The notes under the pieces: model-generated
Database searches by the model: none
The model's input: the letters and a program-made list of their open reading frames with translations, nothing else
What the model was told of the DNA's origin: nothing
Assembly: GCA_964582565.1 (NCBI GenBank)
Contig: CAZOSY010000003.1
Span: 2,178-37,728 of the forward strand
Direction: 5' to 3'
DNA: 35,551 nucleotides
Source: an uncultured Bacteroidales bacterium
GTDB taxonomy: Bacteria; Bacteroidota; Bacteroidia; Bacteroidales; CAZZDX01
Translations under genes and position numbers: made by a program
Shown here: one piece after another, positions 9,763-27,320 of the stretch
Layout of the letters: each line of letters opens with the position of its first letter
Numbering within the stretch: position 1 is the first letter of the stretch

Positions 9763-11742
<1,980 letters not shown>

Positions 11743-11759: not shown

Positions 11760-11908
11760 ATAATTATTTTATTATAAAAAACATAAATATTGCATTAAAA
11801 TCACAGATTTATTGACATTTTTTAATATTGTATTAATATAAAAATATAAATATTGTAAAAATGGGACTAACAGGGGAAAGTTGTTACAAAAACAAGAAGC
11901 TAGTCAAT

Positions 11909-11947
11909 AAAAAAACTGTTACTAAAAATTTAGTAACAGTTTTTTTT
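11909..11947 (-). terminator. bidirectional intrinsic terminator downstream of T9SS paralog A
   Basis: Stem ACTGTTACTAAA/TTTAGTAACAGT, flanked by an A-run on one side and a T-run on the other. It lies 22 nt past the stop codon. Confidence 0.75.
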
Positions 11948-11968
11948 ATATAATATTTTGATTTTTAT

Positions 11969-14923
11969 CTATCTGTTAACAATAATTTTGTGAGTATATA
12001 CATCTTCTTTGTTTTGCAATCTGATAAGATAAATGCCGTTATCTAAATTTTCAAGATTTATCTCTTTTGTATTCAGACCTGTATGAGGATAAATATTTTT
12101 CTCTATCAAAGTTTGTCCTAATATGTTCATTACAGATAAATGTATTGGGCTTAAAGAAAGAGAATTGAGTTCTATTTTAACAAATATCTTACCTGTTTTG
12201 GTAGGGTTAGGATAAATATTTATATTTGACTGGTTTGTTAATTCTTTTATATTCACGCCTTCTTCTGTTGTAAAAGAAAATTCAGGACTCCATTCTGATG
12301 TATCACGACTATGTATTGCTCTTACTCGCCAGTAATATGTTTTTAAACGGGCAAGTCCTCCTATACCTCCTATTTCAATGGTATCAATAGAGCTAGTATC
12401 AACAACAGGATTGTTGAAACCTGGTAAAGTATCATATTGTATTTCATAATAGTTTATTCCTGTAATTTCTTCCCATTTTAAACCAGGATTAACCTCTATG
12501 TCTGTTGCTCCATCAGCAGGATAAGTAAGATTAGCTTTATCAATTACAGTAAAATACCATACAGATGTCCAATCACTGGTATTGCTACTATTATATTTTG
12601 CTCTTACCCTCCAGTAATACTTGGTTCCAAATAAAAGTTCGTTGTTAGAAATCTGTACATAAGGCAAATTATCATCGGCAACAGTAAAACTATATTCAAA
12701 ACTATTAAAATCTGCAATAGTATCAATTTCAAAATCATAATTTGGCACACCTGCTATAGAATTGCATCTTAAAAATACATCAGGCATCATATCGTCAGCA
12801 CCATCATAAGGTGCAATAAGTGTTGCATTATTTACTGTTATAAATGTTCTTACTTGAGACCATGCAGATGCATCGCTATTATGTATAGCTCTTACTCTCC
12901 AGTAATATTTTGTTCCAAATAAGGACTGGACAGCAAATGCCTGTGTTTCAGGCAAATCACTGCTAACTGAAATAATGTTATATTGTGAACTGTTAAAATT
13001 ATTTGTAGTATCAACTTCGCAACTATAATATGTTACACCTGTTACAGCATCCCATTTTAATATCAAACTCAATGATTGATTTGTTACACCATCATTTGGA
13101 TAAATTTGATTTAAAGTATCAATAACTGTAAAGCTTCTTGTTAATGACCATGCAGAAGAATCCGTGCTGTTAAGAGCTTTAACTCTCCAAAAATATTTTT
13201 TACCAAATAATAATTCCTGCGTATTTACAGAAGTATTAACTGATATTAATGTATCTGAAAATAAAAATAAAGAGTTTGTATCTAATTCAATCATATAGGA
13301 AGTTGCTCCTGATATTGCAGCCCACTCTAATAATACATCCGGCATTTGGTTTGTTGCTAAATCTTCCGGTGATATTAAATTTGGAGAACCCGGCATTGTA
13401 TCCAAACTGGTAAAAAACCATATTGATGACCATGAACTTGTATCAATATTATGCATGGTTTTTACTCTCCAGTAATACTTGGTTTTAAACAATAGTGTAT
13501 CAAGGTTTATTTGTGATACATTATCAGTATCTGATATAAGAAGCGTACTGTTAAAATTTAAAGAAGTATCTATTTGTGTAATATAATTTGTTATTCCTGT
13601 AATACTATCCCATTTTAATGAAACATCTAACATTTGACCTGTTGCATTATTAACAGGTGAAATCAAACCAACAGTATTAATAACAGTAAAATTTCTTGCT
13701 GTTGACCAGTCAGAAGAATCAGTGCTATTAATGGCTTTAACTCTCCAAAAATATTTTTCAGCAAATAATAGTTCCTGTGTATTTACAGAAGTATTAGTTG
13801 ATGTTAATGTATCTGAAAATTGGAATAAAGAATTTGTATCTATTTCAATCATATAAGAAGTTGCTCCTGATATTGCGGACCATTCTAATAATGTATTTGG
13901 CATTTGGTTTATTGCTAAATCTTCCGGTGATATTAAATTTGGAGCATTTGGCATTGTATCCAAAGTAGTAAATGACCATTTTGGTGACCAAAAAGAAGAA
14001 TCGTTAGTTCCTATAGCTTTCATTCTCCAGTAATATGTTTGTCCAAACAAAAACGTATCAAGAGTTATCTTGCTGTTATTAGACCATATTAAACCTGAAT
14101 CTAAGGATGTTAAATCTATGGGTGTTGGGAAAAATAATATTTTAAGAGGATTAGGAAAAGAATTGTTTGTATCTAATTCTATTTTATATAAATTAATTCC
14201 CAAAACAGGGTCCCAATCTAATAACACATTATTTGGCGACAGTTCTGTTGCTAAATTTTCGGGTAATACTAAATTTGGAGCACTTGGTATTGTATCTATT
14301 GTGGCGAAAGACCATACTGATGACCATAAACTGGTGTCAGCACTATGTCTGGCTCTTATTCTCCAGTAATATTTAGTTCCGTATAACAATTGGCTTGAAC
14401 TCATACCTATAGCAGAACCATTTACAAAGCCAGATATAAGATGCGTGCTGTTAAAATTTATGATAGTATCAATTTGATAATCATAATTTGTTAATCCTGT
14501 AATGCTATACCATGTTAATAATGCATTTGGTAACTGATATTTGGCACCATTATCAGGTAATTCTAAGGCAACGGTATTAATGACAGTAAAATTTCTTACT
14601 GCTGACCAATAAGAAGAATCGCTGTCATCTATAGCTTTAACTCTCCAAAAATACTTTTCACCAAATAAAAGTTCATGAGCATTAACAGTAGTTACTGCTG
14701 ATGTAAGTATTATCGGATTAATGAACAAAGAATTTGTATCTATTTGAATTTTATAATACAATCCAAAGTCGCCTGTTACCGGCTCCCAATTCAGTAATAC
14801 ATTTGGCATTTGGTCAACTGCCGAATTGCTTGGCGACACCAAACTTGGTGTATAAATCCTTGTCTGTGCTAAAATTCCTGAAACAACTAAAACAAACATA
14901 AAAACAAAAAATATTTTTTTCAT
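11969..14923 (-). CDS. T9SS-sorted repetitive surface protein, paralog A (nine FN3-like modules plus C-terminal sorting domain)
   Basis: 984 aa with signal peptide MKKIFFVFMFVLVVSGILAQ. Nine modules of about 93 aa each end in Y[YF]WR[VIM][KR][AT]...D[ST]S.WS...F. The C-terminal ~85 aa (IYPNPTKTG...GIYLIRL...KIIVNR) matches the type A T9SS sorting domain. Confidence 0.85.
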   Translation of the reverse strand: MKKIFFVFMFVLVVSGILAQTRIYTPSLVSPSNSAVDQMPNVLLNWEPVTGDFGLYYKIQIDTNSLFINPIILTSAVTTVNAHELLFGEKYFWRVKAIDDSDSSYWSAVRNFTVINTVALELPDNGAKYQLPNALLTWYSITGLTNYDYQIDTIINFNSTHLISGFVNGSAIGMSSSQLLYGTKYYWRIRARHSADTSLWSSVWSFATIDTIPSAPNLVLPENLATELSPNNVLLDWDPVLGINLYKIELDTNNSFPNPLKILFFPTPIDLTSLDSGLIWSNNSKITLDTFLFGQTYYWRMKAIGTNDSSFWSPKWSFTTLDTMPNAPNLISPEDLAINQMPNTLLEWSAISGATSYMIEIDTNSLFQFSDTLTSTNTSVNTQELLFAEKYFWRVKAINSTDSSDWSTARNFTVINTVGLISPVNNATGQMLDVSLKWDSITGITNYITQIDTSLNFNSTLLISDTDNVSQINLDTLLFKTKYYWRVKTMHNIDTSSWSSIWFFTSLDTMPGSPNLISPEDLATNQMPDVLLEWAAISGATSYMIELDTNSLFLFSDTLISVNTSVNTQELLFGKKYFWRVKALNSTDSSAWSLTRSFTVIDTLNQIYPNDGVTNQSLSLILKWDAVTGVTYYSCEVDTTNNFNSSQYNIISVSSDLPETQAFAVQSLFGTKYYWRVRAIHNSDASAWSQVRTFITVNNATLIAPYDGADDMMPDVFLRCNSIAGVPNYDFEIDTIADFNSFEYSFTVADDNLPYVQISNNELLFGTKYYWRVRAKYNSSNTSDWTSVWYFTVIDKANLTYPADGATDIEVNPGLKWEEITGINYYEIQYDTLPGFNNPVVDTSSIDTIEIGGIGGLARLKTYYWRVRAIHSRDTSEWSPEFSFTTEEGVNIKELTNQSNINIYPNPTKTGKIFVKIELNSLSLSPIHLSVMNILGQTLIEKNIYPHTGLNTKEINLENLDNGIYLIRLQNKEDVYTHKIIVNR

Positions 14924-14969
14924 ATTATTAATTTATTATTAAAAAATATTATTATTCATTTTAGTCAAT

Positions 14970-15008
14970 AAAAAAACTGTTACTAAAAATTTAGTAACAG
15001 TTTTTTTT
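14970..15008 (-). terminator. bidirectional intrinsic terminator downstream of T9SS paralog B (duplicate of 11909-11947)
   Basis: Identical hairpin and flanking runs, offset by exactly 3,061 nt. Confidence 0.75.
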
Positions 15009-15029
15009 ATATAATATTTTGATTTTTAT

Positions 15030-17984
15030 CTATCTGTTAACAATAATTTTGTGAGTATATACATCTTCTTTGTTTTGCAATCTGATAAGATAAATGCCGT
15101 TATCTAAATTTTCAAGATTTATCTCTTTTGTATTCAGACCTGTATGAGGATAAATATTTTTCTCTATCAAAGTTTGTCCTAATATGTTCATTACAGATAA
15201 ATGTATTGGGCTTAAAGAAAGAGAATTGAGTTCTATTTTAACAAATATCTTACCTGTTTTGGTAGGGTTAGGATAAATATTTATATTTGACTGGTTTGTT
15301 AATTCTTTTATATTCACGCCTTCTTCTGTTGTAAAAGAAAATTCAGGACTCCATTCTGATGTATCACGACTATGTATTGCTCTTACTCGCCAGTAATATG
15401 TTTTTAAACGGGCAAGTCCTCCTATACCTCCTATTTCAATGGTATCAATAGAGCTAGTATCAACAACAGGATTGTTGAAACCTGGTAAAGTATCATATTG
15501 TATTTCATAATAGTTTATTCCTGTAATTTCTTCCCATTTTAAACCAGGATTAACCTCTATGTCTGTTGCTCCATCAGCAGGATAAGTAAGATTAGCTTTA
15601 TCAATTACAGTAAAATACCATACAGATGTCCAATCACTGGTATTGCTACTATTATATTTTGCTCTTACCCTCCAGTAATACTTGGTTCCAAATAAAAGTT
15701 CGTTGTTAGAAATCTGTACATAAGGCAAATTATCATCGGCAACAGTAAAACTATATTCAAAACTATTAAAATCTGCAATAGTATCAATTTCAAAATCATA
15801 ATTTGGCACACCTGCTATAGAATTGCATCTTAAAAATACATCAGGCATCATATCGTCAGCACCATCATAAGGTGCAATAAGTGTTGCATTATTTACTGTT
15901 ATAAATGTTCTTACTTGAGACCATGCAGATGCATCGCTATTATGTATAGCTCTTACTCTCCAGTAATATTTTGTTCCAAATAAGGACTGGACAGCAAATG
16001 CCTGTGTTTCAGGCAAATCACTGCTAACTGAAATAATGTTATATTGTGAACTGTTAAAATTATTTGTAGTATCAACTTCGCAACTATAATATGTTACACC
16101 TGTTACAGCATCCCATTTTAATATCAAACTCAATGATTGATTTGTTACACCATCATTTGGATAAATTTGATTTAAAGTATCAATAACTGTAAAGCTTCTT
16201 GTTAATGACCATGCAGAAGAATCCGTGCTGTTAAGAGCTTTAACTCTCCAAAAATATTTTTTACCAAATAATAATTCCTGCGTATTTACAGAAGTATTAA
16301 CTGATATTAATGTATCTGAAAATAAAAATAAAGAGTTTGTATCTAATTCAATCATATAGGAAGTTGCTCCTGATATTGCAGCCCACTCTAATAATACATC
16401 CGGCATTTGGTTTGTTGCTAAATCTTCCGGTGATATTAAATTTGGAGAACCCGGCATTGTATCCAAACTGGTAAAAAACCATATTGATGACCATGAACTT
16501 GTATCAATATTATGCATGGTTTTTACTCTCCAGTAATACTTGGTTTTAAACAATAGTGTATCAAGGTTTATTTGTGATACATTATCAGTATCTGATATAA
16601 GAAGCGTACTGTTAAAATTTAAAGAAGTATCTATTTGTGTAATATAATTTGTTATTCCTGTAATACTATCCCATTTTAATGAAACATCTAACATTTGACC
16701 TGTTGCATTATTAACAGGTGAAATCAAACCAACAGTATTAATAACAGTAAAATTTCTTGCTGTTGACCAGTCAGAAGAATCAGTGCTATTAATGGCTTTA
16801 ACTCTCCAAAAATATTTTTCAGCAAATAATAGTTCCTGTGTATTTACAGAAGTATTAGTTGATGTTAATGTATCTGAAAATTGGAATAAAGAATTTGTAT
16901 CTATTTCAATCATATAAGAAGTTGCTCCTGATATTGCGGACCATTCTAATAATGTATTTGGCATTTGGTTTATTGCTAAATCTTCCGGTGATATTAAATT
17001 TGGAGCATTTGGCATTGTATCCAAAGTAGTAAATGACCATTTTGGTGACCAAAAAGAAGAATCGTTAGTTCCTATAGCTTTCATTCTCCAGTAATATGTT
17101 TGTCCAAACAAAAACGTATCAAGAGTTATCTTGCTGTTATTAGACCATATTAAACCTGAATCTAAGGATGTTAAATCTATGGGTGTTGGGAAAAATAATA
17201 TTTTAAGAGGATTAGGAAAAGAATTGTTTGTATCTAATTCTATTTTATATAAATTAATTCCCAAAACAGGGTCCCAATCTAATAACACATTATTTGGCGA
17301 CAGTTCTGTTGCTAAATTTTCGGGTAATACTAAATTTGGAGCACTTGGTATTGTATCTATTGTGGCGAAAGACCATACTGATGACCATAAACTGGTGTCA
17401 GCACTATGTCTGGCTCTTATTCTCCAGTAATATTTAGTCCCGTATAACAATTGGCTTGAACTCATGCTTGGAGCAGAACTGCTTACAGAGCCAGATATAA
17501 GATAAGTGCTGTTAAAGTTCATAATAGTATCAATTTGATAATCATAATTTGTTAATCCTGTAATACTATGCCATTGTAGTAATACATTTAGTAACTGGCA
17601 TTTGGCACCATTATCAGGTAAATTTAAAGTAACAATATTAATAACAGTAAAATTTCTTACTGCTGACCAATTAGAAGAATCGCTGTCGTCTATAGCTTTA
17701 ACTCTCCAAAAATATTTTTTACCAAATAAAAGTTCATGAGCATTAACAGTAGTTACTGCTGATGTAAGTGTTACCGGGTTGGCAAATGAATCAGTTATAG
17801 CTATTTGAATTTTATAATACAATCCAAAGTCGCCTGTTACCGGCTCCCAGTTCAGTAATGCATTTGGCATTTGGTTAACTGCCGAATTACTTGGCGATAC
17901 CAAACTTGGTGCATAAGTCCTTGTCTGTGCTAAAATTCCTGAAACAACCAAAGCAAATGCGAAAACAAAAAATATTTTTTTCAT
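15030..17984 (-). CDS. T9SS-sorted repetitive surface protein, paralog B
   Basis: 984 aa. Residues 174-984 are identical to paralog A. By my hand count there are about 31 differences within residues 1-173. Confidence 0.85.
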   Translation of the reverse strand: MKKIFFVFAFALVVSGILAQTRTYAPSLVSPSNSAVNQMPNALLNWEPVTGDFGLYYKIQIAITDSFANPVTLTSAVTTVNAHELLFGKKYFWRVKAIDDSDSSNWSAVRNFTVINIVTLNLPDNGAKCQLLNVLLQWHSITGLTNYDYQIDTIMNFNSTYLISGSVSSSAPSMSSSQLLYGTKYYWRIRARHSADTSLWSSVWSFATIDTIPSAPNLVLPENLATELSPNNVLLDWDPVLGINLYKIELDTNNSFPNPLKILFFPTPIDLTSLDSGLIWSNNSKITLDTFLFGQTYYWRMKAIGTNDSSFWSPKWSFTTLDTMPNAPNLISPEDLAINQMPNTLLEWSAISGATSYMIEIDTNSLFQFSDTLTSTNTSVNTQELLFAEKYFWRVKAINSTDSSDWSTARNFTVINTVGLISPVNNATGQMLDVSLKWDSITGITNYITQIDTSLNFNSTLLISDTDNVSQINLDTLLFKTKYYWRVKTMHNIDTSSWSSIWFFTSLDTMPGSPNLISPEDLATNQMPDVLLEWAAISGATSYMIELDTNSLFLFSDTLISVNTSVNTQELLFGKKYFWRVKALNSTDSSAWSLTRSFTVIDTLNQIYPNDGVTNQSLSLILKWDAVTGVTYYSCEVDTTNNFNSSQYNIISVSSDLPETQAFAVQSLFGTKYYWRVRAIHNSDASAWSQVRTFITVNNATLIAPYDGADDMMPDVFLRCNSIAGVPNYDFEIDTIADFNSFEYSFTVADDNLPYVQISNNELLFGTKYYWRVRAKYNSSNTSDWTSVWYFTVIDKANLTYPADGATDIEVNPGLKWEEITGINYYEIQYDTLPGFNNPVVDTSSIDTIEIGGIGGLARLKTYYWRVRAIHSRDTSEWSPEFSFTTEEGVNIKELTNQSNINIYPNPTKTGKIFVKIELNSLSLSPIHLSVMNILGQTLIEKNIYPHTGLNTKEINLENLDNGIYLIRLQNKEDVYTHKIIVNR

Positions 17985-18021
17985 ATTCTTAATTTATTAT
18001 TATAAAAAATTAGAAATTATT

Positions 18022-20868
18022 TTATTTAAAAACTATAAATTTAGCAGAAACTTTTTCTTTTTCTGCAATCAATTGAACAAAGTATGTCCCGGAATAAAAA
18101 GAATTACAATCTATTATAAACTTATGATTACCAGACGGTTGATTGGATAAGTCAATTGATTTTATAATTCTGCCTGTTATATCATAAATATTAATCATTA
18201 TATTACTGCTCTTATTCAGATTATATTCAATATTCATATTATCTGTTACAGGATTAGGGTATATTTTTAATTCAGATTTAGCTATTGCTACAGGATTATC
18301 AGGTTCTTTTATTCCGACATAATCCAGACATTCAAATATTCCCCGTCCATGAGTGCCAATATAAACAGCTCCATAATTAGTAATTCCCGGGAAGTTGTTA
18401 ATTTGTTGTCCCATCATATAGACCGGAACTCTTGCCATATATTCATTATCTTCTGCCCATGTTGGATAAGAATAATTTATATTTTGAGTAGTAAATACAC
18501 CATATTCTGTTCCTAAAATTACAGTATTTGAATTATACATAGGAATTACAGAAGCATAAACAGGCATTCTTGGTAATGCATTAGTTCCGCTTCCTTGTTT
18601 TGAAGAAAAAATAGGCAAAGAGTCCAATACATTAGTAGATTCATAAACGTAATTAGTATTACCATAATTGCCGAGTGTAACAATAATATGATTATTATCA
18701 TTAGGATCTATAGCAATAGAAGTAACTGCCTGATAGCTAAATGTTTTTAATAATTTTGTTTCAATAGCGCAGGAAGAGCTGGTAACATCAGAGTTTGAGA
18801 AGTCATAAGACAAAGCAAGGTTTGACATTCTGTATAATTTTCCTCCGTTAGTGCCAACAAAGAGATAGTTTCCGTTTTTGGAATAAGACATTGTTTGCAC
18901 GGCTCCTGTAAATTCAGATATTTTATACCATTCGGGTATTTTTGAGAAGTCCAAAGCTTGTTTAGTCATCCATACACCTCCATTTATGCCAAGAAAAAAT
19001 TTGGACTGAATAATATCCTGAATTTTTATAGAATCTCCTGTATAAAGAGGTGATTGAAGAACATATTCAAAAGGATAGTTGTTGTTATTACTTTTTACTA
19101 TAATAGTATCTCCCGCAGCATATTGATTTGTATCAGCCAAAAAAGTTACAGAATCAGTGCTGTGAATATCATTAATACTCTCCCAAAATACAATAGGAGT
19201 AACAAAACATGCCTCAATATTAGAATTTATCATTCTTTGGCTATAAAATGCAGCCACTAGATTTCCGTCGTTATCAATAGTATAAGGACCTTGGAAATTA
19301 TTACCTAAATCAGGGGATCGGCTTGCTTCACCATAATAAATTGAAGCGAATAACACTTCCGGATTGATTAAAGAAAAGGCACAATATCCGCCATCTCCTC
19401 CCATAATATGTTTTCCATTCATAGGAGTATTACCTTTTCTGTCAATAAGTATAGTTCCGTTGTCTTGTGTGCCGCCCATTACAGAGCCATCACCTCCATA
19501 TGCTACTGTATAAAACTGAACAGTATTATAATTTCTGTTTAAAGTATGGAATGTTTCTCCGCCATCAGTAGATTGTGATACTCCGCCATCACTTCCGGTA
19601 TAAATTATGTCAGGATTTTCAGGATGAAAAACATATTTATGATGGTCGGCATGGATATAATGAATATCTGTAGGTTCTAAGAACCACAGTGTTTTATTTG
19701 TCCATGTTCCTCCCTGATTCCATTCCCACATATCAATACCACCAAGGATAATTTTATCGCGATTGTTTGGAAATACAACTATTTCATTATCATAATGTCC
19801 TTGATTTCTAAATGGCTGGAAGTCATCTGAGCCACCAGGACCAATAATTTCCCATGTTTCTCCTTTATCTGTAGATCTATAGATATTTTTTATTTCGCCA
19901 TTTGTTTTTGCAGCGCTGGCATATATATAGTTAGGGTCAGACGGAGCTATTGCAAATTCAATTCTGCTAACACCTGTTGCACCTGGAATATTTTTTTCAT
20001 CAAAAGTGCCGAGTTCTCCATTAGTAGAGATATAACATTTATTATTTATACAAGCAAGGACGCTTCTGTCAGAAGCCACTTCAACATCATAAGTTTTACC
20101 ATTATTAGGATGTCCCGGGGCTAATTCCACAGGATTTGTCCATGTTTCTCCCTGATCGTCAGATACTTTTAAGCCACTATTTGTTGCGGCATATACTCTT
20201 TCAGAAACAGGGTCGCATGCTAATTCATATACAAAAGCCCATTTAACAGAAGTGCTGTTTGGGGTAGGTTTTGTAGAAGGCAAAAATTCAAATGTCTCTC
20301 CATCTGTTGATTTATACATTCCCTGTCCAATAAAACTTGTGCTGCCATTAGCACCACCAGTAACAACGCCAAAACCTTCTCCTGTGCCAACATAAATAAT
20401 TCCACTAGGGGATTGTGTAATACAAGAGATAGCAAGATTTTGTGCCATATCATTAACTGGCACCCACGAACTACCTCCTGTAGTTGATTTCCATAATCCG
20501 CCACTTACACCACCGGCATACATAATATTTGGATTATTTCTGTCAATAAGTATTGCTCTTGTTCTGCCTCCAACATTATCAGGTCCAACTTCTGCCCAAT
20601 TAAGACCTATAGCAGTTTTTGTTTTTGCTAATTTATTTACCTGTGCTCTGGCATTTAATACATCTTGCGAATTAATTTCTCCTGTTATCTTATTATTTCT
20701 AATTGAAGCCAAATATTCAATAGCTCCTTTTATACCTTGTTGTTTTTGAATATTATCTTTACGGGGTATATATTTTTGCGTTTTAAATATACCTGAGGAA
20801 GTAATAATAAAAGTAATACTTACAAAAGATAAAACTATTAAACTTAAGAATAAATTTTTGTTTCTCAT
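18022..20868 (-). CDS. BNR/Asp-box repeat (sortilin/VPS10-like beta-propeller) protein with T9SS sorting domain
   Basis: Asp-box motifs are STTGGSSW, SDDQGETW, STDKGETW and STDGGETF. The C-terminus KIYPNPVTDN...GTYFVQL...KFIVFK is a T9SS sorting domain. The ORF track starts at 20895, but I prefer the ATG at 20868 (MRNKNLFLSLIVLSF), which begins directly at the signal peptide. Confidence 0.8.
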   Translation of the reverse strand: MRNKNLFLSLIVLSFVSITFIITSSGIFKTQKYIPRKDNIQKQQGIKGAIEYLASIRNNKITGEINSQDVLNARAQVNKLAKTKTAIGLNWAEVGPDNVGGRTRAILIDRNNPNIMYAGGVSGGLWKSTTGGSSWVPVNDMAQNLAISCITQSPSGIIYVGTGEGFGVVTGGANGSTSFIGQGMYKSTDGETFEFLPSTKPTPNSTSVKWAFVYELACDPVSERVYAATNSGLKVSDDQGETWTNPVELAPGHPNNGKTYDVEVASDRSVLACINNKCYISTNGELGTFDEKNIPGATGVSRIEFAIAPSDPNYIYASAAKTNGEIKNIYRSTDKGETWEIIGPGGSDDFQPFRNQGHYDNEIVVFPNNRDKIILGGIDMWEWNQGGTWTNKTLWFLEPTDIHYIHADHHKYVFHPENPDIIYTGSDGGVSQSTDGGETFHTLNRNYNTVQFYTVAYGGDGSVMGGTQDNGTILIDRKGNTPMNGKHIMGGDGGYCAFSLINPEVLFASIYYGEASRSPDLGNNFQGPYTIDNDGNLVAAFYSQRMINSNIEACFVTPIVFWESINDIHSTDSVTFLADTNQYAAGDTIIVKSNNNNYPFEYVLQSPLYTGDSIKIQDIIQSKFFLGINGGVWMTKQALDFSKIPEWYKISEFTGAVQTMSYSKNGNYLFVGTNGGKLYRMSNLALSYDFSNSDVTSSSCAIETKLLKTFSYQAVTSIAIDPNDNNHIIVTLGNYGNTNYVYESTNVLDSLPIFSSKQGSGTNALPRMPVYASVIPMYNSNTVILGTEYGVFTTQNINYSYPTWAEDNEYMARVPVYMMGQQINNFPGITNYGAVYIGTHGRGIFECLDYVGIKEPDNPVAIAKSELKIYPNPVTDNMNIEYNLNKSSNIMINIYDITGRIIKSIDLSNQPSGNHKFIIDCNSFYSGTYFVQLIAEKEKVSAKFIVFK

Positions 20869-20912
20869 ATTGCTTATTTTATTATAATTAAACATTCTGT
20901 ATTTTAAAAATA

Positions 20913-20920
20913 CAAATATA
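20913..20920 (-). promoter_or_regulatory. candidate -7 box (TATATTTG on the minus strand)
   Basis: The plus strand reads CAAATATA. It is upstream of both candidate start codons of the BNR gene. No clear -33 TTTG. Confidence 0.3.
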
Positions 20921-21066
20921 TAAAAAATAATTTAATATAAAACCATTAAACAATATTTTTTTATTTTTATCAAACTTTTACCACATTGTATTACACTATG
21001 AAACAAAATTTGAGACATTTTTTAGAATAATTGGGTTAATTGGGATTTTGCTAATTGATATATTTA

Positions 21067-21837
21067 TTATTTATTATATCTTTTCCCAAAATGAAAGCTA
21101 AAATAAACAGACAGGAATATATTATTATTAGTATTAAAAGCCATAATTGGAATAGATTTTGGATATGCATCAATAATAGCACCAACTTCAAGGGCTTTAA
21201 TATTTTTGTTGTATAAGCCATACTCAAAGTTAAATCCAACTTTTCCATAAATTCCCGGATAGACACTCATTTTGTCCAGTCCCTTAGTAAAAGCTGCTCT
21301 GCCACATATATTTTCCATAAAATGTTTGTTAGGGTCAAATCTTTCTGTGGTGATATCATAGTCAGAAGCGGATGAAAAATCCAAAGTATAAATACTCAAA
21401 TAAACAGGTTTTGTTAATCCCAAAGATATGCCTCCATAATAGAAATACCTTACTTCAACTCCACCCCAGTAAGGTTTGGTATTTATTATTTTTTGAATTC
21501 CAATGCCTGTCCTTATATTAAATAATTCATTTAACTTACCATAGACATAACTTTTAGAATTGTCAAAATAAGGATTTATAGTTTTTGTTTCTTTGGGATG
21601 TTTTGTTTTTACAAGTTCAATCTCAAGCATTTTTTTTTTAAACCCTGTTAAATGCTTACCTTTTCTGAAAGTAAATCCCCATCCGGCAGAATGGATAACA
21701 AAAGCTGCACTATATTCTTTATAGTATAAAACTTTTACCTGCTCAATGCTTGTTGTATCCTGAGAATAAGAATAAAAGCAAAAACAAAGAAGAATAGATA
21801 TTAATAATAGTTTTATATTTATACTTATATTTCGCAT
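21067..21837 (-). CDS. hypothetical secreted or outer-membrane protein
   Basis: 256 aa with an N-terminal signal-like segment (LLLISILLCFCFYSYSQ). Alternating hydrophobic patterns such as GFNFEYGLY and VGAIIDAY are suggestive of beta strands. I recognised no family. Confidence 0.5.
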   Translation of the reverse strand: MRNISINIKLLLISILLCFCFYSYSQDTTSIEQVKVLYYKEYSAAFVIHSAGWGFTFRKGKHLTGFKKKMLEIELVKTKHPKETKTINPYFDNSKSYVYGKLNELFNIRTGIGIQKIINTKPYWGGVEVRYFYYGGISLGLTKPVYLSIYTLDFSSASDYDITTERFDPNKHFMENICGRAAFTKGLDKMSVYPGIYGKVGFNFEYGLYNKNIKALEVGAIIDAYPKSIPIMAFNTNNNIFLSVYFSFHFGKRYNK

Positions 21838-21962
21838 TATTTGTAATTAATTATCTGCCTAAGGACGAATAATTTATAAAGATAAAAAAAAATTACAAAT
21901 CAAAGATTATAATCACTTATAATAAAAAAATAAAAATCAATCAGATGCCTGACCCATAGATT

Positions 21963-22109
21963 TTATTTTTGAATATTAGCATTATGTGCTCCTGAATAAG
22001 CATAGGCAGGACATGGTGGCTCTCTTGTTATTCTGTTTGTCCTGCATGAAGATAAAAACATAGTTAATAAAAATAATACTGTAACAAACAATAATAAAAC
22101 TTTTTTCAT
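21963..22109 (-). CDS. small putative lipoprotein (48 aa), absent from the ORF track
   Basis: My own translation is MKKVLLLFVTVLFLLTMFLSSCRTNRITREPPCPAYAYSGAHNANIQK. It has a basic N-terminus, a hydrophobic core and an LSSC lipobox. Confidence 0.4.
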   Translation of the reverse strand: MKKVLLLFVTVLFLLTMFLSSCRTNRITREPPCPAYAYSGAHNANIQK

Positions 22110-22272
22110 AATTTTACTTCAAAATTTAAGTTCTTTATAGATAATCAAAAAATTTTTGCAAATTTAGTTTTTATTTTATAAATAATAAAAAAAAATATCA
22201 ATTATTTATAAATATTAAAGTTTAAATTTATATAAACATCTGATATACAAGGATAAACAAAAAAAAATATTT

Positions 22273-24027
22273 TTGAAAAAAATTATTTACATATTATTCA
22301 TTCTGCTTTTTTGTTTTGTTTTTAAATTAAATGCGCAAAACTATACTTTATCATTAGAAAACAATAGTGATAAAGACAATAAAATGATTAAGAAATTAAA
22401 TTATAAAAAGCATTTTTATACTAAAACAGAAAGAGAAAAAGAAATAAAAAATATTTTATTTTGGCTTTACAATAATTCATATATAACTGCAAGATTTGAC
22501 AGTATTATTGAAGATTCATTAAATTTATCTGCATATCTGTTTGTCGGAAACAAATATACATTAGCATCTGTTAATAAAGGAAATGTTGATAAGACATTAC
22601 TTAGTGAAGTTGGCTATAAAGAAAATTTTTATTCACCTAAAGCAGGCAAAGTTTTTCAATATAAAGAGATACGAACTTTAATTGAAAAAATACTTATTTT
22701 TTGTGAAAACAATGGCTATCCTTTTGCTTTAATTAAATTAGACAGCATAAGCATTGATTCAAACTGTTTACAGGCAAGTTTAAATCTTAATAAAAATCTT
22801 AAAATTAATATTGACAGCATTATTATTAAAGGAAATGCAAAAATTTCTAATACCTATCTTTACTCTTATTTAGGAATAAAACCAAAAAATATTTATAATG
22901 AATCAAAAATAAACAAAATAAATACCAGATTAAAAGAATTACAATTTGTTAAAAAAACAAAACCCATTGATATAATATTTGTAAAAAATGATGCAAAAAT
23001 TTTGCTTTATATAGATAAAAAAAATGTTAGCCAGTTTAATGGCATTTTAGGTGTTTTACCTAATAATAGGACAGGAAAAATTTTGCTAAATGGTGATGTT
23101 CATTTAAAATTGCTCAATTCATTTGGAAAAGGAGAACTAATTGATTTTAACTGGCGTAAAATAGAACAAAACACTCAAAACTTAAAAACTAATTTTGTCT
23201 TGCCTTTTATCTTATCTACTCCTTTTGGCATTGACTTTAAATTTTCTATTTACAAAAAAGATACTTCTTATCTTAATATAAATTCTAATATTGGTATTCA
23301 GTATTTATTTAAAGGGAATAATTATATAAAAGTTTTTTTAGACAATCGTAAATCTTCATTAGTTAGCACTACGGGATTGAAAAATATAACTGTGCTACCT
23401 TCTTATGCTGATATTTCGACAATGTTTTACGGCTTAGAACTAAATAATGAAAAACTTGACTATGGTCTCAACCCAAGAAAAGGTTATCAAATAAAACTCT
23501 CGGCAGCTGCAGGGAATAAAAATATTAAAAAAAATGATAAAATAAACCCTGATATATATGACAAATTAAAATTATCAACAACACAATATAAAATAGAATC
23601 TGATTTTGGTGTGTTTTTACCTTTGTTTCAAAAAAATACAATCTTTATTAATATAAAAAGTGCAATTATTGATAATCCAAATCTTTTTGAAAATGAACTT
23701 TACAGAATCGGAGGATTAAAAACACTTAGAGGTTTTGACGAAGAATCTATTAATGCTTCATTATATTCAATTTTAAATATTGAATACAGATATCTGTTAG
23801 AACAAAATTCTTACATATATCTTTTTTGGAATGGGGCATATTATGAAAACAAATCTGTTAATCCGCCTGAAGTGAGTTGCGACAGACCTTATGGCTTTGG
23901 TGCTGGAATTAGTTTTGAAACAAAAATAGGGATATTCTCTATTAATTATGCTCTTGGAAAACAATTTAATAACCCTATATATTTCAAATCTGCAAAAATC
24001 CATTTTGGGGTGGTTAATTATTTTTAA
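22273..24027 (+). CDS. Omp85/BamA-family outer-membrane barrel protein (surface antigen D15-like)
   Basis: 584 aa. Starts at TTG, with a signal peptide ending NAQ. It has a POTRA-like N-terminal half, an L6-loop-type motif LRGFDE and an aromatic C-terminal residue (GVVNYF). Confidence 0.7.
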   Translation: MKKIIYILFILLFCFVFKLNAQNYTLSLENNSDKDNKMIKKLNYKKHFYTKTEREKEIKNILFWLYNNSYITARFDSIIEDSLNLSAYLFVGNKYTLASVNKGNVDKTLLSEVGYKENFYSPKAGKVFQYKEIRTLIEKILIFCENNGYPFALIKLDSISIDSNCLQASLNLNKNLKINIDSIIIKGNAKISNTYLYSYLGIKPKNIYNESKINKINTRLKELQFVKKTKPIDIIFVKNDAKILLYIDKKNVSQFNGILGVLPNNRTGKILLNGDVHLKLLNSFGKGELIDFNWRKIEQNTQNLKTNFVLPFILSTPFGIDFKFSIYKKDTSYLNINSNIGIQYLFKGNNYIKVFLDNRKSSLVSTTGLKNITVLPSYADISTMFYGLELNNEKLDYGLNPRKGYQIKLSAAAGNKNIKKNDKINPDIYDKLKLSTTQYKIESDFGVFLPLFQKNTIFINIKSAIIDNPNLFENELYRIGGLKTLRGFDEESINASLYSILNIEYRYLLEQNSYIYLFWNGAYYENKSVNPPEVSCDRPYGFGAGISFETKIGIFSINYALGKQFNNPIYFKSAKIHFGVVNYF

Positions 24028-24036
24028 AATTTTATG

Positions 24037-24044
24037 TAAGTTTG
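24037..24044 (+). promoter_or_regulatory. Bacteroidota-type -7 promoter box TAAGTTTG
   Basis: Lies within AAATTTTATGTAAGTTTGTAA, 61 nt upstream of the ATG at 24105. The extended motif is shared with 119-139 and 7354-7373. Confidence 0.45.
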
Positions 24045-24104
24045 TAATTGCTAATTTTTAATTTTTTAACTGAATTTTCTTGAAATATAAAAATATTAAA
24101 ACAA

Positions 24105-24998
24105 ATGAAAAAAATATATTTATCAGTCATCATTTATTTAATTTTTGGTTGTCAATCTTTTGCACAGACAGCAGACAAACAACAGTCGTCAATGCATGAA
24201 AGAATTAACAGAGTAAAAAATGCGACAGTACAAATTATTGTAAACGGAGAAGTTGCAGGAACCGGCTTTGTTATATCTGAAGATGGCTTGATAGCAACAT
24301 GCTTTAATGTTGTTAAGAACAAACAAACTTCATTTCATAAAATAGACATTACAAATGGCACAATAGATAATACGAACAATGCCGGAGCCAAAATATCATC
24401 ATCAATTGAAGTTAAATTTTATGACGGGACAAAACTCTCTGCCAAGGTCTCTAAATATTTGAATACGCAAGAAAAAATTCATAAAGCATACACAAAAGAT
24501 TATTGCATATTAAAAATAAAATCTTTAAAAAAGTTTAAATTTCTTGCTCTTGGCAGTTTCGCCGATGCTTATGAAGGAGCAAATTTATATCTGTCAGGAT
24601 TTCCTGCCGGCATTGACCAGCCGATTGTCTCTGTTGGAATGTTATCAACAAAATATGTTAATACTAATTATATTGTATATCAGGATTCTGTAAAAACAGC
24701 ATGGATTGATATACCTACAAACAAAGGAAATTCAGGTAGTCCTGTAATACTTATGGGTAAAGAGCCAAAAGATGATAAAGTTATAGGTATTGCATCTTTT
24801 GAATTATCTCCATACAGTAAAATAACTAAGGACTTAGAGAATCATATAAAGACCATACCTCAGGGACTTAAACTGTTTGGACTAGATATTAAAAAGTTTT
24901 ATACAATTATAAGTGAATCAGTATCCTCTAACTCTGTTGGTGTTAGTGGCTGTATATCAATAGATTATATAAAAAGTGCATTAGACACAAAATTATAA
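24105..24998 (+). CDS. secreted trypsin-fold (S1C/Trypsin_2-like) protein, possibly catalytically impaired
   Basis: 297 aa with a signal peptide. GTGFVISEDGLIATCFNVV aligns by eye to the GSGFVI..DG.I.TNAHVV block. DYCILKI supplies the Asp and GNSGSPV the Ser. Asn68 (AAT at 24306-24308) occupies the expected His position. Confidence 0.7.
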   Translation: MKKIYLSVIIYLIFGCQSFAQTADKQQSSMHERINRVKNATVQIIVNGEVAGTGFVISEDGLIATCFNVVKNKQTSFHKIDITNGTIDNTNNAGAKISSSIEVKFYDGTKLSAKVSKYLNTQEKIHKAYTKDYCILKIKSLKKFKFLALGSFADAYEGANLYLSGFPAGIDQPIVSVGMLSTKYVNTNYIVYQDSVKTAWIDIPTNKGNSGSPVILMGKEPKDDKVIGIASFELSPYSKITKDLENHIKTIPQGLKLFGLDIKKFYTIISESVSSNSVGVSGCISIDYIKSALDTKL

Positions 24999-25092
24999 AA
25001 TTAAGTTTACTTTTTTTTATTCGTTTTTACACTTTTTGTGTAAACCTATTTCAGGACGAGACACTTTTTTAGCTAACAAAATTGTTTTTTAA

Positions 25093-25635
25093 TCATTTTC
25101 TTTTTATAGTATGTTTGAATTTTAATACCGCAAAGTTTAATTCTATTGTTGTTTCGGTTTCATTTAAACTAAGGTCGTCATCGAAAATTTCGGTAATGAT
25201 TTCACCGCTTTTTCGCATGATGTCCTTCTTTTTCTGTTCATCAGTCACATTTGACAACTCTTTTATATTTCTTGAAAGATTTTTAATCTTTGCAAATGTT
25301 TCAATGATGGCAAGGGTTGTTTGCGTTGCTCTTTTACTTTTAAGAATAGTTGCGAGCATATATAAACCTTTTTCGGTAAATGCCTTTGGTGGTTGAGGGA
25401 AAAATTTTATTTTTGCAAGGTTATCAAAATTTTTGATAACCTCCTGTTTCTCGTCATTAGTGAGTATAAATATATATCCTTTAGGAAATTTGTCGGGATT
25501 ATTTTTGACCGCTTGATTTATCTCTCTTGTTTCAACAGAATATAGAGCTGCCACATCACTGTCCAGAATGGTTTTTTTCCCTCTAATCTCAATAATCTTT
25601 TTTCCGACTTCCTCAAATTTTACGATAGTATTCAT
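25093..25635 (-). CDS. ORF6N (KilA-N-related) domain protein
   Basis: 180 aa. The N-terminal IIEIRGKKTILDSDVAALYSVETREINQAVKNNPDKFPKGYIF is the characteristic ORF6N DNA-binding block, which is common in phage and mobile contexts. Confidence 0.7.
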   Translation of the reverse strand: MNTIVKFEEVGKKIIEIRGKKTILDSDVAALYSVETREINQAVKNNPDKFPKGYIFILTNDEKQEVIKNFDNLAKIKFFPQPPKAFTEKGLYMLATILKSKRATQTTLAIIETFAKIKNLSRNIKELSNVTDEQKKKDIMRKSGEIITEIFDDDLSLNETETTIELNFAVLKFKHTIKRK

Positions 25636-25675
25636 CTTTGTTATGTATTATAATTTTAGGTGGATTTTAAAAATT

Positions 25676-25714
25676 AACTTAGCTGAAATCGCTTTCGGCT
25701 AAGTTCATTTTTTT
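25676..25714 (+). terminator. strong orphan hairpin with T7 run
   Basis: AACTTAGCTGAAA-TCGC-TTTCGGCTAAGTT forms 13 bp including one G-T pair. It is followed by CA and then TTTTTTT. No plus-strand gene ends nearby. On the minus strand it lies upstream of the ORF6N start. Confidence 0.35.
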
Positions 25715-25955
25715 ACTTCTTAATAGAGGAAATTGCAGAGCCTGCCTGTCTGCCGTGCCAACGGCACAGGTAGATTAATCAATTTTCTTAAATCAGTGTA
25801 AATATACAACATTTAAACGATAATTATAATAATATTAAATTTTTGTTTTTTTATCATGATTATTATAATAACCCAAGTTATGATATATAAACGAAAATTA
25901 TTTGTATCAGAAAAATAAAAATAAATAAACTGATACTGTAATACTTTATTTTATT

Positions 25956-25963
25956 TATATTTG
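25956..25963 (+). promoter_or_regulatory. Bacteroidota-type -7 promoter box TATATTTG
   Basis: Lies 23 nt upstream of the rmuC ATG at 25986. Confidence 0.45.
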
Positions 25964-25985
25964 CTAAACAAAAAAATTAACTAAT

Positions 25986-27320
25986 ATGGAAGCATTATAC
26001 ATTATAACAGGTTTAGTCATTGGATTTTTCATCACATGGGTTTTTACAAAAAATAAATTATCTATCCTTAATAAAGAAAAAACTAATCTTGATAAAGAAA
26101 AAAGCATATTTCAAAATGAACGGGATAATTTGAAAGAAAATAAAGAAAACTTAGAAACAGATTTAGAAAAAGAGCAAAATTACTCAGCAGATTTAAGAGT
26201 TCGGTTAGGGAAAAAAGAAACAGAAAATGAAAATATTCAGGACAAACTTAATACACAAAAAAAAGAGTTAGAAGAGATACAAAAAAAATTTACTGTTGAA
26301 TTTCAAAATATCGCGAATAATATATTAAAACAAAACTCAAAAGAATTTACAAATCTTAATCAGGAAAAAATTGGTAATATTTTAAATCCTTTAAAAGAAC
26401 GAATTAAGGAATTTTCAGAAAAAGTAGAAAAGACACATAACGAAGGGAGAATAAACAGTGCCAGCTTAAAAACAAAGATAGAAGATTTATCTAAAAACAA
26501 TGAAAAATTAAGTAAAGAAGCTAATAATTTGGCTAAAGCATTAAAAGGAGAATCTAAAACTCAGGGTGATTGGGGTGAAATGATTTTAGACAGGACGTTG
26601 GAGATGTCCGGTTTAGAAAAAAGTATAGAATATAAAAAACAAGAATCTATAAGAAACAAACAAGGCGTTTTAATTCGTCCTGATGTTATTATTCTTTTGC
26701 CTGAAAACAGAAATATTATTGTTGACTCAAAGGTCTCATTAAACGCTTACAATGATTATGTAAATACAAATAATTTAGAAGAGAAAAAAATACATTTAAA
26801 AAAACATATTGAATCAATAAAAAATCATGTAAAAGAATTGAGTAAAGCAAACTATCAAAATACTGTTGAAAATTCTCTTGATTTTGTTCTTATGTTTTTG
26901 CCTATTGCTCCTTCTCTTGATATTGCTCTGCAAAATGAAAATGATTTGCTTAAATTTGCATATAATAAAAAAGTAATTATTGTAACTCCTTTTACATTGC
27001 TTGCAACTCTTAAAACTATTGAATCATTATGGAGACAAGAGAAACAAAATAAAAATGCAATAAAAATAGCCCAGCAAGCAGGTGATATGTATGACAAATT
27101 TGTTTCGTTTTTAGAAGATTTTAAAAAAGTTGGAGACCAGATTAAAACTGTGCAGGGAACTTATGATAAAGCAGAAAATAAACTATCGTCAGGAACAGGC
27201 AATCTTATTAAAAGATCTGAAAACATTAAACAATTAGGGGCAAAAACATCTAAAATATTGCCTAACCAATTTACAACAACAAGAGAAATAAACTTTATTG
27301 AAGGAAAAAATGAAAATTAA
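25986..27320 (+). CDS. rmuC: DNA recombination protein RmuC
   Basis: 444 aa. It has an N-terminal TM helix, a long coiled coil, then the RmuC nuclease-like domain (GDWGEMILDRTLEMSGL, RPDVIILLP, VDSKVSL). Confidence 0.85.
   Translation: MEALYIITGLVIGFFITWVFTKNKLSILNKEKTNLDKEKSIFQNERDNLKENKENLETDLEKEQNYSADLRVRLGKKETENENIQDKLNTQKKELEEIQKKFTVEFQNIANNILKQNSKEFTNLNQEKIGNILNPLKERIKEFSEKVEKTHNEGRINSASLKTKIEDLSKNNEKLSKEANNLAKALKGESKTQGDWGEMILDRTLEMSGLEKSIEYKKQESIRNKQGVLIRPDVIILLPENRNIIVDSKVSLNAYNDYVNTNNLEEKKIHLKKHIESIKNHVKELSKANYQNTVENSLDFVLMFLPIAPSLDIALQNENDLLKFAYNKKVIIVTPFTLLATLKTIESLWRQEKQNKNAIKIAQQAGDMYDKFVSFLEDFKKVGDQIKTVQGTYDKAENKLSSGTGNLIKRSENIKQLGAKTSKILPNQFTTTREINFIEGKNEN

Follow-up and report, generated by a model that had tools for sequence, protein, structure and literature searches.

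Two neighbouring genes on the reverse strand of the window (the whole 35,551-nucleotide stretch analysed, from an uncultured Bacteroidales bacterium) are identical along most of their length and clearly different at their 5-prime ends. The question raised by this locus is how such a mosaic arose. The sequence-only reading of the window had proposed that gene conversion homogenises the 3-prime 2.4 kb, leaving the N-terminal modules distinct or diversifying. The two copies were therefore compared with each other, with a sister species, with another assembly of the same species and with public sequencing runs.

The tandem unit and its product

Base-by-base comparison at an offset of 3,061 revealed a 3,061-bp unit present as a tandem duplicate (Table 1). 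The sequences joined at the head-to-tail junction are unrelated except for a TA dinucleotide, common to 11901-11902, 14962-14963 and 18023-24, which constitutes a 2-nt microhomology, and independent contigs crossing the junction were recovered from two public runs, X2 and X8. The unit is thus a tandem duplication formed by illegitimate recombination. The hairpin between the two genes has a twin at 11909-11946 and is likely to be a bidirectional terminator. A scan for sigma-70 promoters and terminators gave counts equal to the shuffled expectation, the consensus not being applicable to Bacteroidota. The 957-aa gene upstream served as the anchor of the single-copy context in other assemblies.

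Table 1 Coordinates of the features of the duplicated locus in the window
Feature	Position	Strand
Tandem unit 1 (copy A): 68-bp 3-prime flank with hairpin, gene A, 38-bp upstream spacer	11901..14961	-
Tandem unit 2 (copy B): layout as unit 1; upstream end touches the stop codon of the 957-aa gene	14962..18022	-
Duplication junction (14961/14962)	14960..14963	
Perfect hairpin, 18-nt stem, A7/T7 flanks; just past the gene B stop, between B and A	14970..15007	
Gene A, 984 aa: putative signal peptide, nine ~94-aa FN3 modules, T9SS C-terminal sorting domain (residues 903-982)	11969..14923	-
Gene B, 984 aa: architecture as gene A; 31 residue differences from A, all in residues 9-173	15030..17984	-
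Identical block, copy A; 2,477 bp, equal to 14962-17438	11901..14377	
Identical block, copy B	14962..17438	
Divergent block, copy A; 584 bp, 68 differences; codons 1-182 and 38-bp spacer	14378..14961	-
Divergent block, copy B; 5-prime end type common to allele D and the sister species	17439..18022	-
Hot spot 1: codons 62-72, C-C' loop of FN3 module 1 (17770-17800 in copy B)	14709..14739	-
Hot spot 2: codons 154-173, C-C'-E region of FN3 module 2	14405..14462	-
Upstream neighbour: 957-aa T9SS cargo, Sortilin/Vps10-like repeats and C-terminal sorting domain	18022..20895	-
Downstream neighbour: GyrB/ParE-type topoisomerase subunit	9763..11721	-

The N-terminus of the product, MKKIFFVF(M/A)F(V/A)LVVSGILAQ, resembles a signal peptide in sequence. 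Nine YxWR(V/I/M)(K/R) motifs follow at a spacing of ~94 aa, and the Pfam fn3 family matched at 51 bits against a cut-off of 25. The AF2 model of residues 21-211 had a pLDDT of 93.3, and the top Foldseek matches in the PDB were all tandem FN3 pairs (E 1e-10). With its repeated ~90-aa, seven-stranded beta-sandwich modules, the product is a fibronectin type III repeat protein. A Por_Secre_tail domain (PF18962/TIGR04183) occupies the extreme C-terminus, residues 903-982 of 984 (46.7 bits, cut-off 27), which on sequence grounds would make the protein a T9SS type-A cargo; the window also contains GldB (353.7 bits) along with another gene for a sorting-domain cargo. The N-terminus of a T9SS-anchored protein with a type-A sorting domain is expected to be the exposed end, and the N-terminus of the present protein would be surface-exposed.

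Searches of the PDB by sequence gave no match, and exact-protein look-ups found neither copy on record. Only 4 proteins at E <= 1e-10 were returned by the N-terminal protein search among 5.8 billion, and no close named homologue was found in these proteins or the PDB. Metagenome and genome scans with the protein yielded a single close relative, L001 (= L004), from a sister species of ~90% nucleotide identity.

Divergence between the copies

Counted from the 3-prime end, the first difference between the copies was confirmed at 14378/17439, and the identical block takes in 68 bp past the stop codon. From this breakpoint to the start codon (14378-14923), an ungapped alignment with no indels showed 61 differences in 546 bp (11.2%), and the proteins differ at 31 residues, the last of which is residue 173, the change at codon 182 being synonymous; the earlier hand counts of about one position in nine and 31 changes within 173 residues were accurate. 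Other parts of that description needed correction. The substitutions, described as a mix, are not an even one, as 51 are transitions (T<->C 32, G<->A 19) against 10 transversions, and they affect all four bases, not adenine specifically. The divergent block, followed only up to the ATG in that description, continues through the 38-bp upstream spacer with 7 further differences as far as the junction. The breakpoint falls at codon 182, inside FN3 module 2 and just ahead of a conserved YYWR motif, and not at a module boundary.

Divergence peaks at the edge of the unit, with 17.6% at the 5-prime end of copy A (13 differences in the 74 bp of 14888-14961), 10.8% in 14378-14887 and 0% beyond. The contrast between identical and divergent parts is far beyond chance (maximum chi-square 301; probability of 0 differences in 2,477 bp at the N-terminal rate ~1e-133). 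Differences moreover fall in clusters (dispersion index 2.3, P = 5e-5). Hot spot 1 contains 14 A/B differences and shows a third state in allele D, which is A-type at hot spot 2. A compensated codon insertion and deletion was considered for the cluster at codons 62-66 by hand comparison of codons and was not clearly more parsimonious (6-7 changes and 2 indels versus 9 changes).

Between A and B, dS over codons 1-182 was 0.18-0.31, compared with 0.20-0.40 over the remainder of the gene when set against the sister species; the dS of the divergent block thus equals that between species. The corresponding dN/dS was 0.28-0.52, below 1 and similar to the 0.16-0.38 of that between-species comparison. 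In the hot spots dS reached 0.46-0.59 versus 0.165 elsewhere, dN was raised as well, and dN/dS was at most 0.68. Since dS is raised along with dN, the hot spots represent old sequence and not a fast-evolving protein. The view of the N-terminal modules as distinct or diversifying is therefore retained as regards their variability between copies and strains, but not as regards accelerated protein change.

Copy number and alleles in public data

Public runs were examined as Logan contigs, which show presence, not absence, and whose depths are whole-contig means. Junction k-mers were found in 2 of 10 runs only, X2 (103 nt, 4x versus 7-8x for the flank) and X8 (703 nt, 5.9x). In X2, 73 consecutive junction 31-mers were present and the graph branches exactly at 11901/14962. 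No junction contig was found among the Logan contigs of X1; here a 781-nt contig passes 11901 unbroken, and two body contigs, one A-type (14800-14886, 11.2x) and one B-type (19.9x), meet a single B-type 5-prime end, which runs on into the 957-aa gene in a 6,082-nt contig. The X1 depths are additive, A (13.5) and B/D (24) together approximating the shared region (32-35) and the left flank (33.5), and the A-type and B-type bodies in this run behave as alternative alleles of a single-copy locus. The sister species (L001/L004) has one copy, inside a 56-kb contig from a short-read assembly, which could collapse a perfect tandem repeat.

The 5-prime end of copy A, 14888-14961, was seen only in those public runs that also contain the junction (X2, X8) and never as an allele of the single-copy locus, so copy A may have been evolving separately for longer than expected of a very young duplication. 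The segments of copy A, in the form given in the window, are never all present in one examined run, X1 being without the junction and X2 without the pure A-type 14504-14582. Loose contig ends at 14893-14944, none of which matches the window or L004, belong to other abundant genes with a common ~35-nt signal-peptide-coding start.

The samples are salt-lake and marine metagenomes. Between the window and L007, a second assembly from this species, the ~10 kb of flanking sequence (17926-27984) contains 5 differing sites, but the ~800 bp at the start of the gene (17143-17925) contain 64. The species background is thus ~99.95% identical in the adjoining ~10 kb, whereas the N-terminal alleles are ~8-11% divergent. 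Strain-level polymorphism of the N-terminal segment, which the sequence-only reading had suggested seeking in metagenomes, was hence found both in L007 and in Logan contigs. In a four-way alignment of alleles A and B (the window copies), C (L004) and D (L007), quartet patterns came in consecutive runs (AC/BD x5, AD/BC x8, AB/CD x4), with 6 switches observed versus 15.8 expected (P = 2.5e-5), a test on these four sequences. Allele D was confirmed independently by Logan contigs of six runs, which match it in difference counts and letters. It combines a B-type 5-prime end with an A-type 3-prime end, as a product of unit-deleting unequal crossing-over would, so that gain and loss of the duplication both fit. 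Another allele beyond A, B and D was present in Logan contigs of X2 and X3 and was counted as a fourth; alleles D and E hold some states shared with neither A nor B. Mosaic alleles in circulation number at least four, and several occur side by side in every run examined.

The 3-prime part behaves otherwise. Strain-level contigs were identical over 12535-13204 and 13915-14224, and background strain divergence leads to only 1.2 expected differences in 2,477 bp (P(0) = 0.29); on so near-clonal a background the 3-prime identity needs no special homogenisation. Variants in the shared block were seen at 16836-16859 in X2 and X4, their copy of origin not being assignable.

Origin of the mosaic

These results are best explained, in our moderately confident view, by a young, polymorphic tandem duplication carrying two old alleles of a hypervariable N-terminal segment. 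The locus would encode a T9SS-exported surface protein, a rod of nine FN3 domains, of which the N-terminal ~230 codons (putative signal peptide, the first two modules and the beginning of the third) would exist as old, recombining alleles in an otherwise near-clonal species. Illegitimate recombination at the TA microhomology would have duplicated a 3,061-bp unit with exactly this one gene, with the hypervariable segment present as a different allele in each copy. At 14378/17439, the change from 0% to 11% divergence would mark a homologous-recombination crossover in the conserved YYWR-motif region of module 2. The 3-prime 2.4 kb would be identical because that part hardly varies in the species and the duplication is young, rather than through repeated homogenisation. 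A recombination breakpoint was therefore the right kind of explanation in the earlier reading, but its homogenising gene conversion is not favoured, as the 3-prime part is invariant between strains too, the sister species is single-copy and the junction is confined to 2 of 10 runs, dN/dS resembles that of the remaining gene, and the two body types are alternative alleles of one locus in X1. Some of the mosaics may be due to conversion still taking place between the copies. The order of duplication and allele exchange is what we infer, as is any selective agent acting on the N-terminal segment.

An unlikely alternative is an old duplication, dating at least from the sister-species split, in which recurrent gene conversion keeps the 3-prime 2.4 kb identical while the 5-prime edge escapes and diverges, the single-copy strains and the sister species having lost the unit by unequal crossing-over. 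The head divergence is indeed as deep as the species split, and the A-type 5-prime end occurs only with the junction; however, the gene is single-copy in the outgroup and the junction is limited to two runs (short-read data). The peak of divergence at the unit edge would suit conversion tracts that rarely reach it, but the other edge, 11901-11968, is without any divergence. While allele D resembles a B/A deletion recombinant and the A-type/B-type mosaics show that exchange occurs, D and E have states found in neither copy. The sharp tract boundary and donor/recipient mosaic of concerted evolution are present, as the chi-square and quartet tests show; the paralogs, 100% identical in the 3-prime part, are nevertheless matched there by equally identical strain contigs, so this identity carries no conversion signal. 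Moreover, a perfect 2.4-kb tandem repeat is unstable, and its retention through ~10% sequence divergence would require sustained selection.

It is also rather unlikely that the pattern is an assembly effect, the junction being real in some cells but the window copies representing one collapsed 2.4-kb repeat node traversed twice in the short-read graph of a mixed population, with the perfect identity, the breakpoint (as the first graph fork) and the copy A phasing due in part to the assembler. Independent short-read assemblies do break inside the gene (at 17143 in L007, with Logan contigs of 100-700 nt in this region), though the window may come from long reads. The coexistence of alleles in every run, the scattering of the copy A segments over different runs and the unassignable shared-block variants would all suit such a collapse; on the other hand, the junction 31-mers of X2 and the long junction contig of X8 show that the tandem arrangement was not invented, and the X2 graph branches exactly where a true tandem requires.

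More doubtfully, the distal FN3 head may be under long-term balancing (negative frequency-dependent) selection, for instance by phages or grazers using it as a receptor, such that alleles as old as the species split persist and recombine and the duplication fixes two of them in one haploid genome; if true, this would be a bacterial version of permanent heterozygosity, one cell displaying two heads at once. That the N-terminal modules were altered after duplication by diversifying positive selection or by a targeted mutator (a diversity-generating retroelement, for example) is highly improbable and already largely refuted, for although residue changes are concentrated in the C-C' and C'-E loops of each of the two FN3 modules, at what should be the exposed end of a T9SS-anchored protein, dN/dS stays low even in the hot spots with dS raised too, transitions dominate and the substitutions are spread over all four bases, and the 35.5-kb window is without a reverse transcriptase, recombinase or template repeat. 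An invertase or shufflon was likewise rejected, no flanking inverted repeats being present besides the terminator hairpin.

The locus is an ordinary recombination mosaic and not a new mechanism, and it shares features with several known systems. Concerted evolution of duplicated bacterial genes by gene conversion is known from tufA/tufB and rRNA operons, which likewise have identical paralog tracts with sharp breakpoints. In those cases, however, both copies are ancient and universal and conversion is shown by within- versus between-genome identity, whereas here the outgroup is single-copy, and over the identical tract strains resemble each other as closely as the paralogs do. Transient tandem duplications (copy-number polymorphism) form at short junction homologies in bacteria, and the present head-to-tail, one-gene unit with a 2-nt junction microhomology, found in part of the population, resembles them; such duplications are normally fully identical, unlike the two alleles here, 11% apart over 584 bp. 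Hypervariable surface genes in near-clonal aquatic and hypersaline populations include 'replacement' variable regions attributed to phage pressure. The extreme local allelic diversity of a presumably exposed surface protein on a ~99.95% identical background is similar, but only part of one gene varies here and not a glycosyltransferase/O-antigen island. T9SS type-A C-terminal-domain cargo with FN3/Ig repeats is a known class, with which the protein shares a putative signal peptide, the repeated beta-sandwich modules, a Por_Secre_tail above the Pfam cut-off and GldB in the window, while differing in being without a close named homologue.

The babA/babB/babC genes of Helicobacter pylori form chimeric genes by intragenomic homologous recombination and gene conversion, and their copy number and locus occupancy vary between strains (PMC4552749). 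Like the present copies, these outer-surface adhesin paralogs have near-identical 3-prime regions and a variable part (PMC4552749). Unlike them, bab genes are scattered over separate loci instead of being arranged in tandem, have their variable part in the middle, and encode Helicobacter outer membrane proteins (OMPs) rather than FN3-repeat T9SS cargo; the phase-variable CT repeats of bab were not seen here. A literature search on T9SS, tandem duplication and gene conversion found nothing relevant.

A striking pattern within one genome can mislead, as a tandem-paralog mosaic of 0% and then 11% divergence mimics concerted evolution, while the population data point to an ordinary young copy-number variant that by chance holds two old alleles. 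Biologically, the diversity of the alleles is the more useful lead, with a divergence of ~8-11% limited to the first ~230 codons of a T9SS FN3-rod protein. The N-terminal modules are likely to be the interaction surface of this protein, and are a candidate target of phage or predator pressure.

The tandem pair and its surroundings

ORF listing and repeat finding showed that copies A and B lie head to tail, repeating every 3,061 bp (units 11901-14961 and 14962-18022). Position-by-position comparison at this offset revealed an unbroken identical run of 2,477 bp (11901-14377 and 14962-17438), and the first difference was located at 14378/17439, exactly where the sequence-only reading had placed it. 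Its estimates for the stretch from there to the ATG, roughly one difference in nine without indels and about 31 amino acid changes, were also borne out: 61 differences were counted in 14378-14923 (11.2%), gaps were unneeded, and the 31 changes all fell within residues 9-173. The block had been taken to end at the ATG; it was found to run on through the 38-bp spacer upstream, with 7 further differences, to the junction of the units at 14961|14962 (68 differences in 584 bp). The substitutions, described there as a mix of transitions and transversions, proved strongly transition-biased (51 to 10). The 0%/11% contrast is beyond chance (maximum chi-square 301; P ~1e-133 that 2,477 bp would show no difference if the rate were that of the N-terminal stretch). 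The breakpoint lies at codon 182, within module 2 and directly ahead of the conserved GTKYYWRIRA motif.

Pfam assigns residues 903-982 of the encoded protein to a Por_Secre_tail T9SS sorting domain (46.7 bits; cut-off 27) and also matches fn3, Ig_Rha78A_N and Pur_ac_phosph_N-type repeats. Nine YxWR(V/I/M)(K/R) motifs, spaced by about 94 residues, mark out nine modules. The AlphaFold2 model of residues 21-211 was confident (pLDDT 93.3), and its best PDB matches were all tandem fibronectin type III (FN3) pairs. A two-module super-repeat was also observed among the nine modules, with a spacing of 558 bp (12989-13288, 13547-13846, 14447-14746 and the copy B equivalents); module pairs (1,2), (4,5) and (6,7) share 66-76% nucleotide identity with one another, and module 3 is longer (112 aa).

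Features of the tandem pair and its neighbours
Feature	Coordinates	Strand	Details
Copy A ORF, 984 aa	11969-14923	-	ORF listing
Copy B ORF, 984 aa	15030-17984	-	ORF listing
Perfect hairpin, 18-bp stem	11909-11946, 14970-15007		AAAAAAACTGTTACTAAA / TTTAGTAACAGTTTTTTT; A7/T7 flanks; 22 nt past each stop codon
Upstream neighbour, T9SS cargo, 957 aa	18022-20895		Sortilin/Vps10-like repeats + Por_Secre_tail
Downstream neighbour, GyrB/ParE-type topoisomerase subunit gene			

The gap between the 957-aa gene and copy B is only 38 bp, which suggests that the two are co-transcribed, and the former's stop codon reaches into the duplicated unit at its right-hand end. Judged from its sequence, the hairpin in each unit is likely to be a bidirectional terminator. 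Since it follows the stop codon of each unit, copy A would sit downstream of a probable terminator, its own upstream sequence amounting to just 38 bp, and its expression may be weak or different. The remaining window is core chromosome (metH, metF, an aconitase-family protein, RmuC, GldB and ValRS). At 30092-30810, adjacent genes for a nucleotidyltransferase (106 aa) and a HEPN-domain protein (133 aa), with overlapping stop and start codons, have the layout of an MNT-HEPN toxin-antitoxin module, and an ORF6N-domain protein adjoins RmuC (25093-25635, 25986-27320).

Alleles of the N-terminal segment

Searches of genome and metagenome collections gave a single close relative, an uncultured Bacteroidales MAG (L001, identical to L004), about 89-93% identical over the neighbourhood, with one copy of the gene and the same two neighbours either side within a 56-kb contig. 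Of the 68 sites that distinguish A from B, this sister species sequence (C) was B-like at 42, A-like at 22 and neither at 4, and 35 more sites in the divergent block were private to it. Its A-like sites were concentrated in hot spot 1 (codons 62-72 of the gene, in module 1; 14709-14739 in A).

A protein search with the N-terminus reached allele D on L007, a MEGAHIT contig of the same species from another sample, which stops inside the gene. It aligned with the window from 27984 down to 17143, with 5 differences in the ~10 kb flank and 64 in 17143-17925; the five flank differences are clustered (3 at 24372-24376 and 2 at 21280-21338). Allele D has the B-type sequence in the spacer, the signal peptide and the positions corresponding to 14504-14582, the A-type over those corresponding to 14378-14462, and matches neither at hot spot 1, where it shows a third state. 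It also departs from both copies over the counterpart of 14225-14355, a stretch in which the two are identical. At the parsimony-informative sites of A, B, C and D, all three groupings occurred in consecutive runs (6 switches against 15.8 expected, P = 2.5e-5), which makes the segment a recombination mosaic. The start of module 3 in allele D (L007 10700-10838; window equivalent 17143-17354) reads AVDQTPDVLLDW against ATELSPNNVLLDW in the window, with a one-codon deletion; AVDQTPDVLLDW is nearer to the consensus shared by the other modules, and may thus have arisen by intragenic conversion. Close to the contig end, the called protein P0001 (267 aa) is cut short by a 1-nt deletion (equivalent of 17220) that could be an error of assembly. 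A second protein, P0002 (133 aa), on the 869-nt ENA contig L008, matched part of the N-terminal query at 78% identity; L008 has several short ORFs, P0002 bears a precomputed NusB Pfam label, and a further allele, frameshifted or present as a chimeric fragment, may be its source.

Ten public metagenome runs, salt-lake and marine, contain parts of 14300-15100; they were read as Logan contigs, which show presence, not absence, and give depths as means. The strain polymorphism that the sequence-only reading had proposed to look for over 14378-14923 was found. Allele D was confirmed exactly in six runs, the difference counts in four intervals (13, 10, 27 and 1) matching and 11/11 diagnostic letters agreeing. 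A fourth allele was present in X2 and X3 at 14479-14604 (3.1-3.6x), with 14 differences from A; it is B-type save for A letters at 14509, 14529, 14538 and 14574, and has two changes of its own. The sister species sequence, with 21 differences in this interval, is distinct from it. At 12535-13204 and 13915-14224, contigs of several runs were identical to the window, so strain-level variability is confined to ~14225-14925. Very deep contigs (30-120x) from unrelated contexts matched 14893-14944 only over the ~35 nt coding MKKIFFVF... and the AT-rich spacer, their continuations having no match in the window or L004; this signal-peptide start is common to other abundant genes or organisms.

Copy number and selection

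In X2, a 103-nt contig crosses the junction (14889-14991) at a depth of 4 against 7-8 in the flank, and the graph branches exactly at 11901/14962; in X8 a 703-nt contig crosses it. As a targeted index search with 14870-14995 returned these two runs only, the junction is real but not general. Contigs of 781, 3,023, 746 and 1,525 nt in X1, X3, X4 and X6, respectively, pass unbroken through 11901, linking the gyrB flank with the gene, and no junction contig was found among the Logan contigs of these four. In X1, an A-type body (11.2-13.5x) and a B-type body (~20-24x, D included) join one B-type 5-prime end and then the 957-aa gene, and their depths sum to those of the shared region (32-35x) and left flank (33.5x). 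A and B thus behave in X1 as alleles of a single-copy gene.

The N-terminal modules had been thought possibly to be diversifying. This was not supported, as dN/dS between A and B over codons 1-182 was 0.40 (NG86), 0.52 (LWL85) and 0.28 (YN00), near the 0.16-0.38 obtained when the remainder of the gene is compared with the sister species, and no different regime is visible on the head. The dS between the heads (0.18-0.31) is as large as that between the two species over the rest of the gene (0.20-0.40). Amino acid changes cluster in the module 1 C-C' loop (codons 62-72) and the homologous C-C'-E region of module 2 (codons 155-173). Since dS is raised there too (0.46-0.59 against 0.165 elsewhere) and dN/dS is at most 0.68, these clusters are patches of older ancestry and not of accelerated protein change.

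Origin of the pair

Gene conversion homogenising the 3-prime 2.4 kb had been proposed from its perfect identity. At the background of 5 differences in ~10 kb, two population draws of these 2,477 bp would differ at 1.2 positions, with P(0) = 0.29, and the identity is therefore no evidence of homogenisation. The part needing explanation is the old variation of the head, present independently of the duplication. We favour, with some reserve, a young, polymorphic tandem duplication at a TA microhomology, whose units hold two alleles, older than the duplication, of an N-terminal segment that is hypervariable. On this reading the 14378 breakpoint marks a homologous crossover within the conserved YYWR region.

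An old duplication with concerted evolution would account for the outer edge of copy A (74 bp, 14888-14961; 17.6% divergent), which was found only in company with the junction and never at the single-copy locus, and for the B-5'/A-3' form of allele D, expected from unequal-crossover deletion of a tandem pair; on these two points it keeps a minor share of the probability. An assembly contribution, with a repeat node traversed twice or copy A phased from mixed strains, has a share about as small: in its favour, all of copy A, as written in the window, occurs in no single run; against it, the junction itself was recovered in X2 and X8. Neither a targeted mutator nor strong positive selection is a serious candidate, given the want of a reverse transcriptase or recombinase in the window, the 51:10 transitions and the hot-spot dN/dS of at most 0.68.

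The closest well-studied analogue is the bab adhesin family of H. pylori, whose paralogs have homologous 3-prime regions and form chimeras via intragenomic recombination, with locus occupancy differing among strains (PMC4552749). Unlike bab, the pair described here is tandem, encodes FN3-repeat T9SS cargo and lacks a phase-variable repeat. The processes, tandem duplication and homologous recombination between alleles of a surface protein, are known, and the pair adds a new case of them. Most worth pursuing is that, in an environmental population close to clonal, deep allelic diversity is restricted to the distal FN3 modules.
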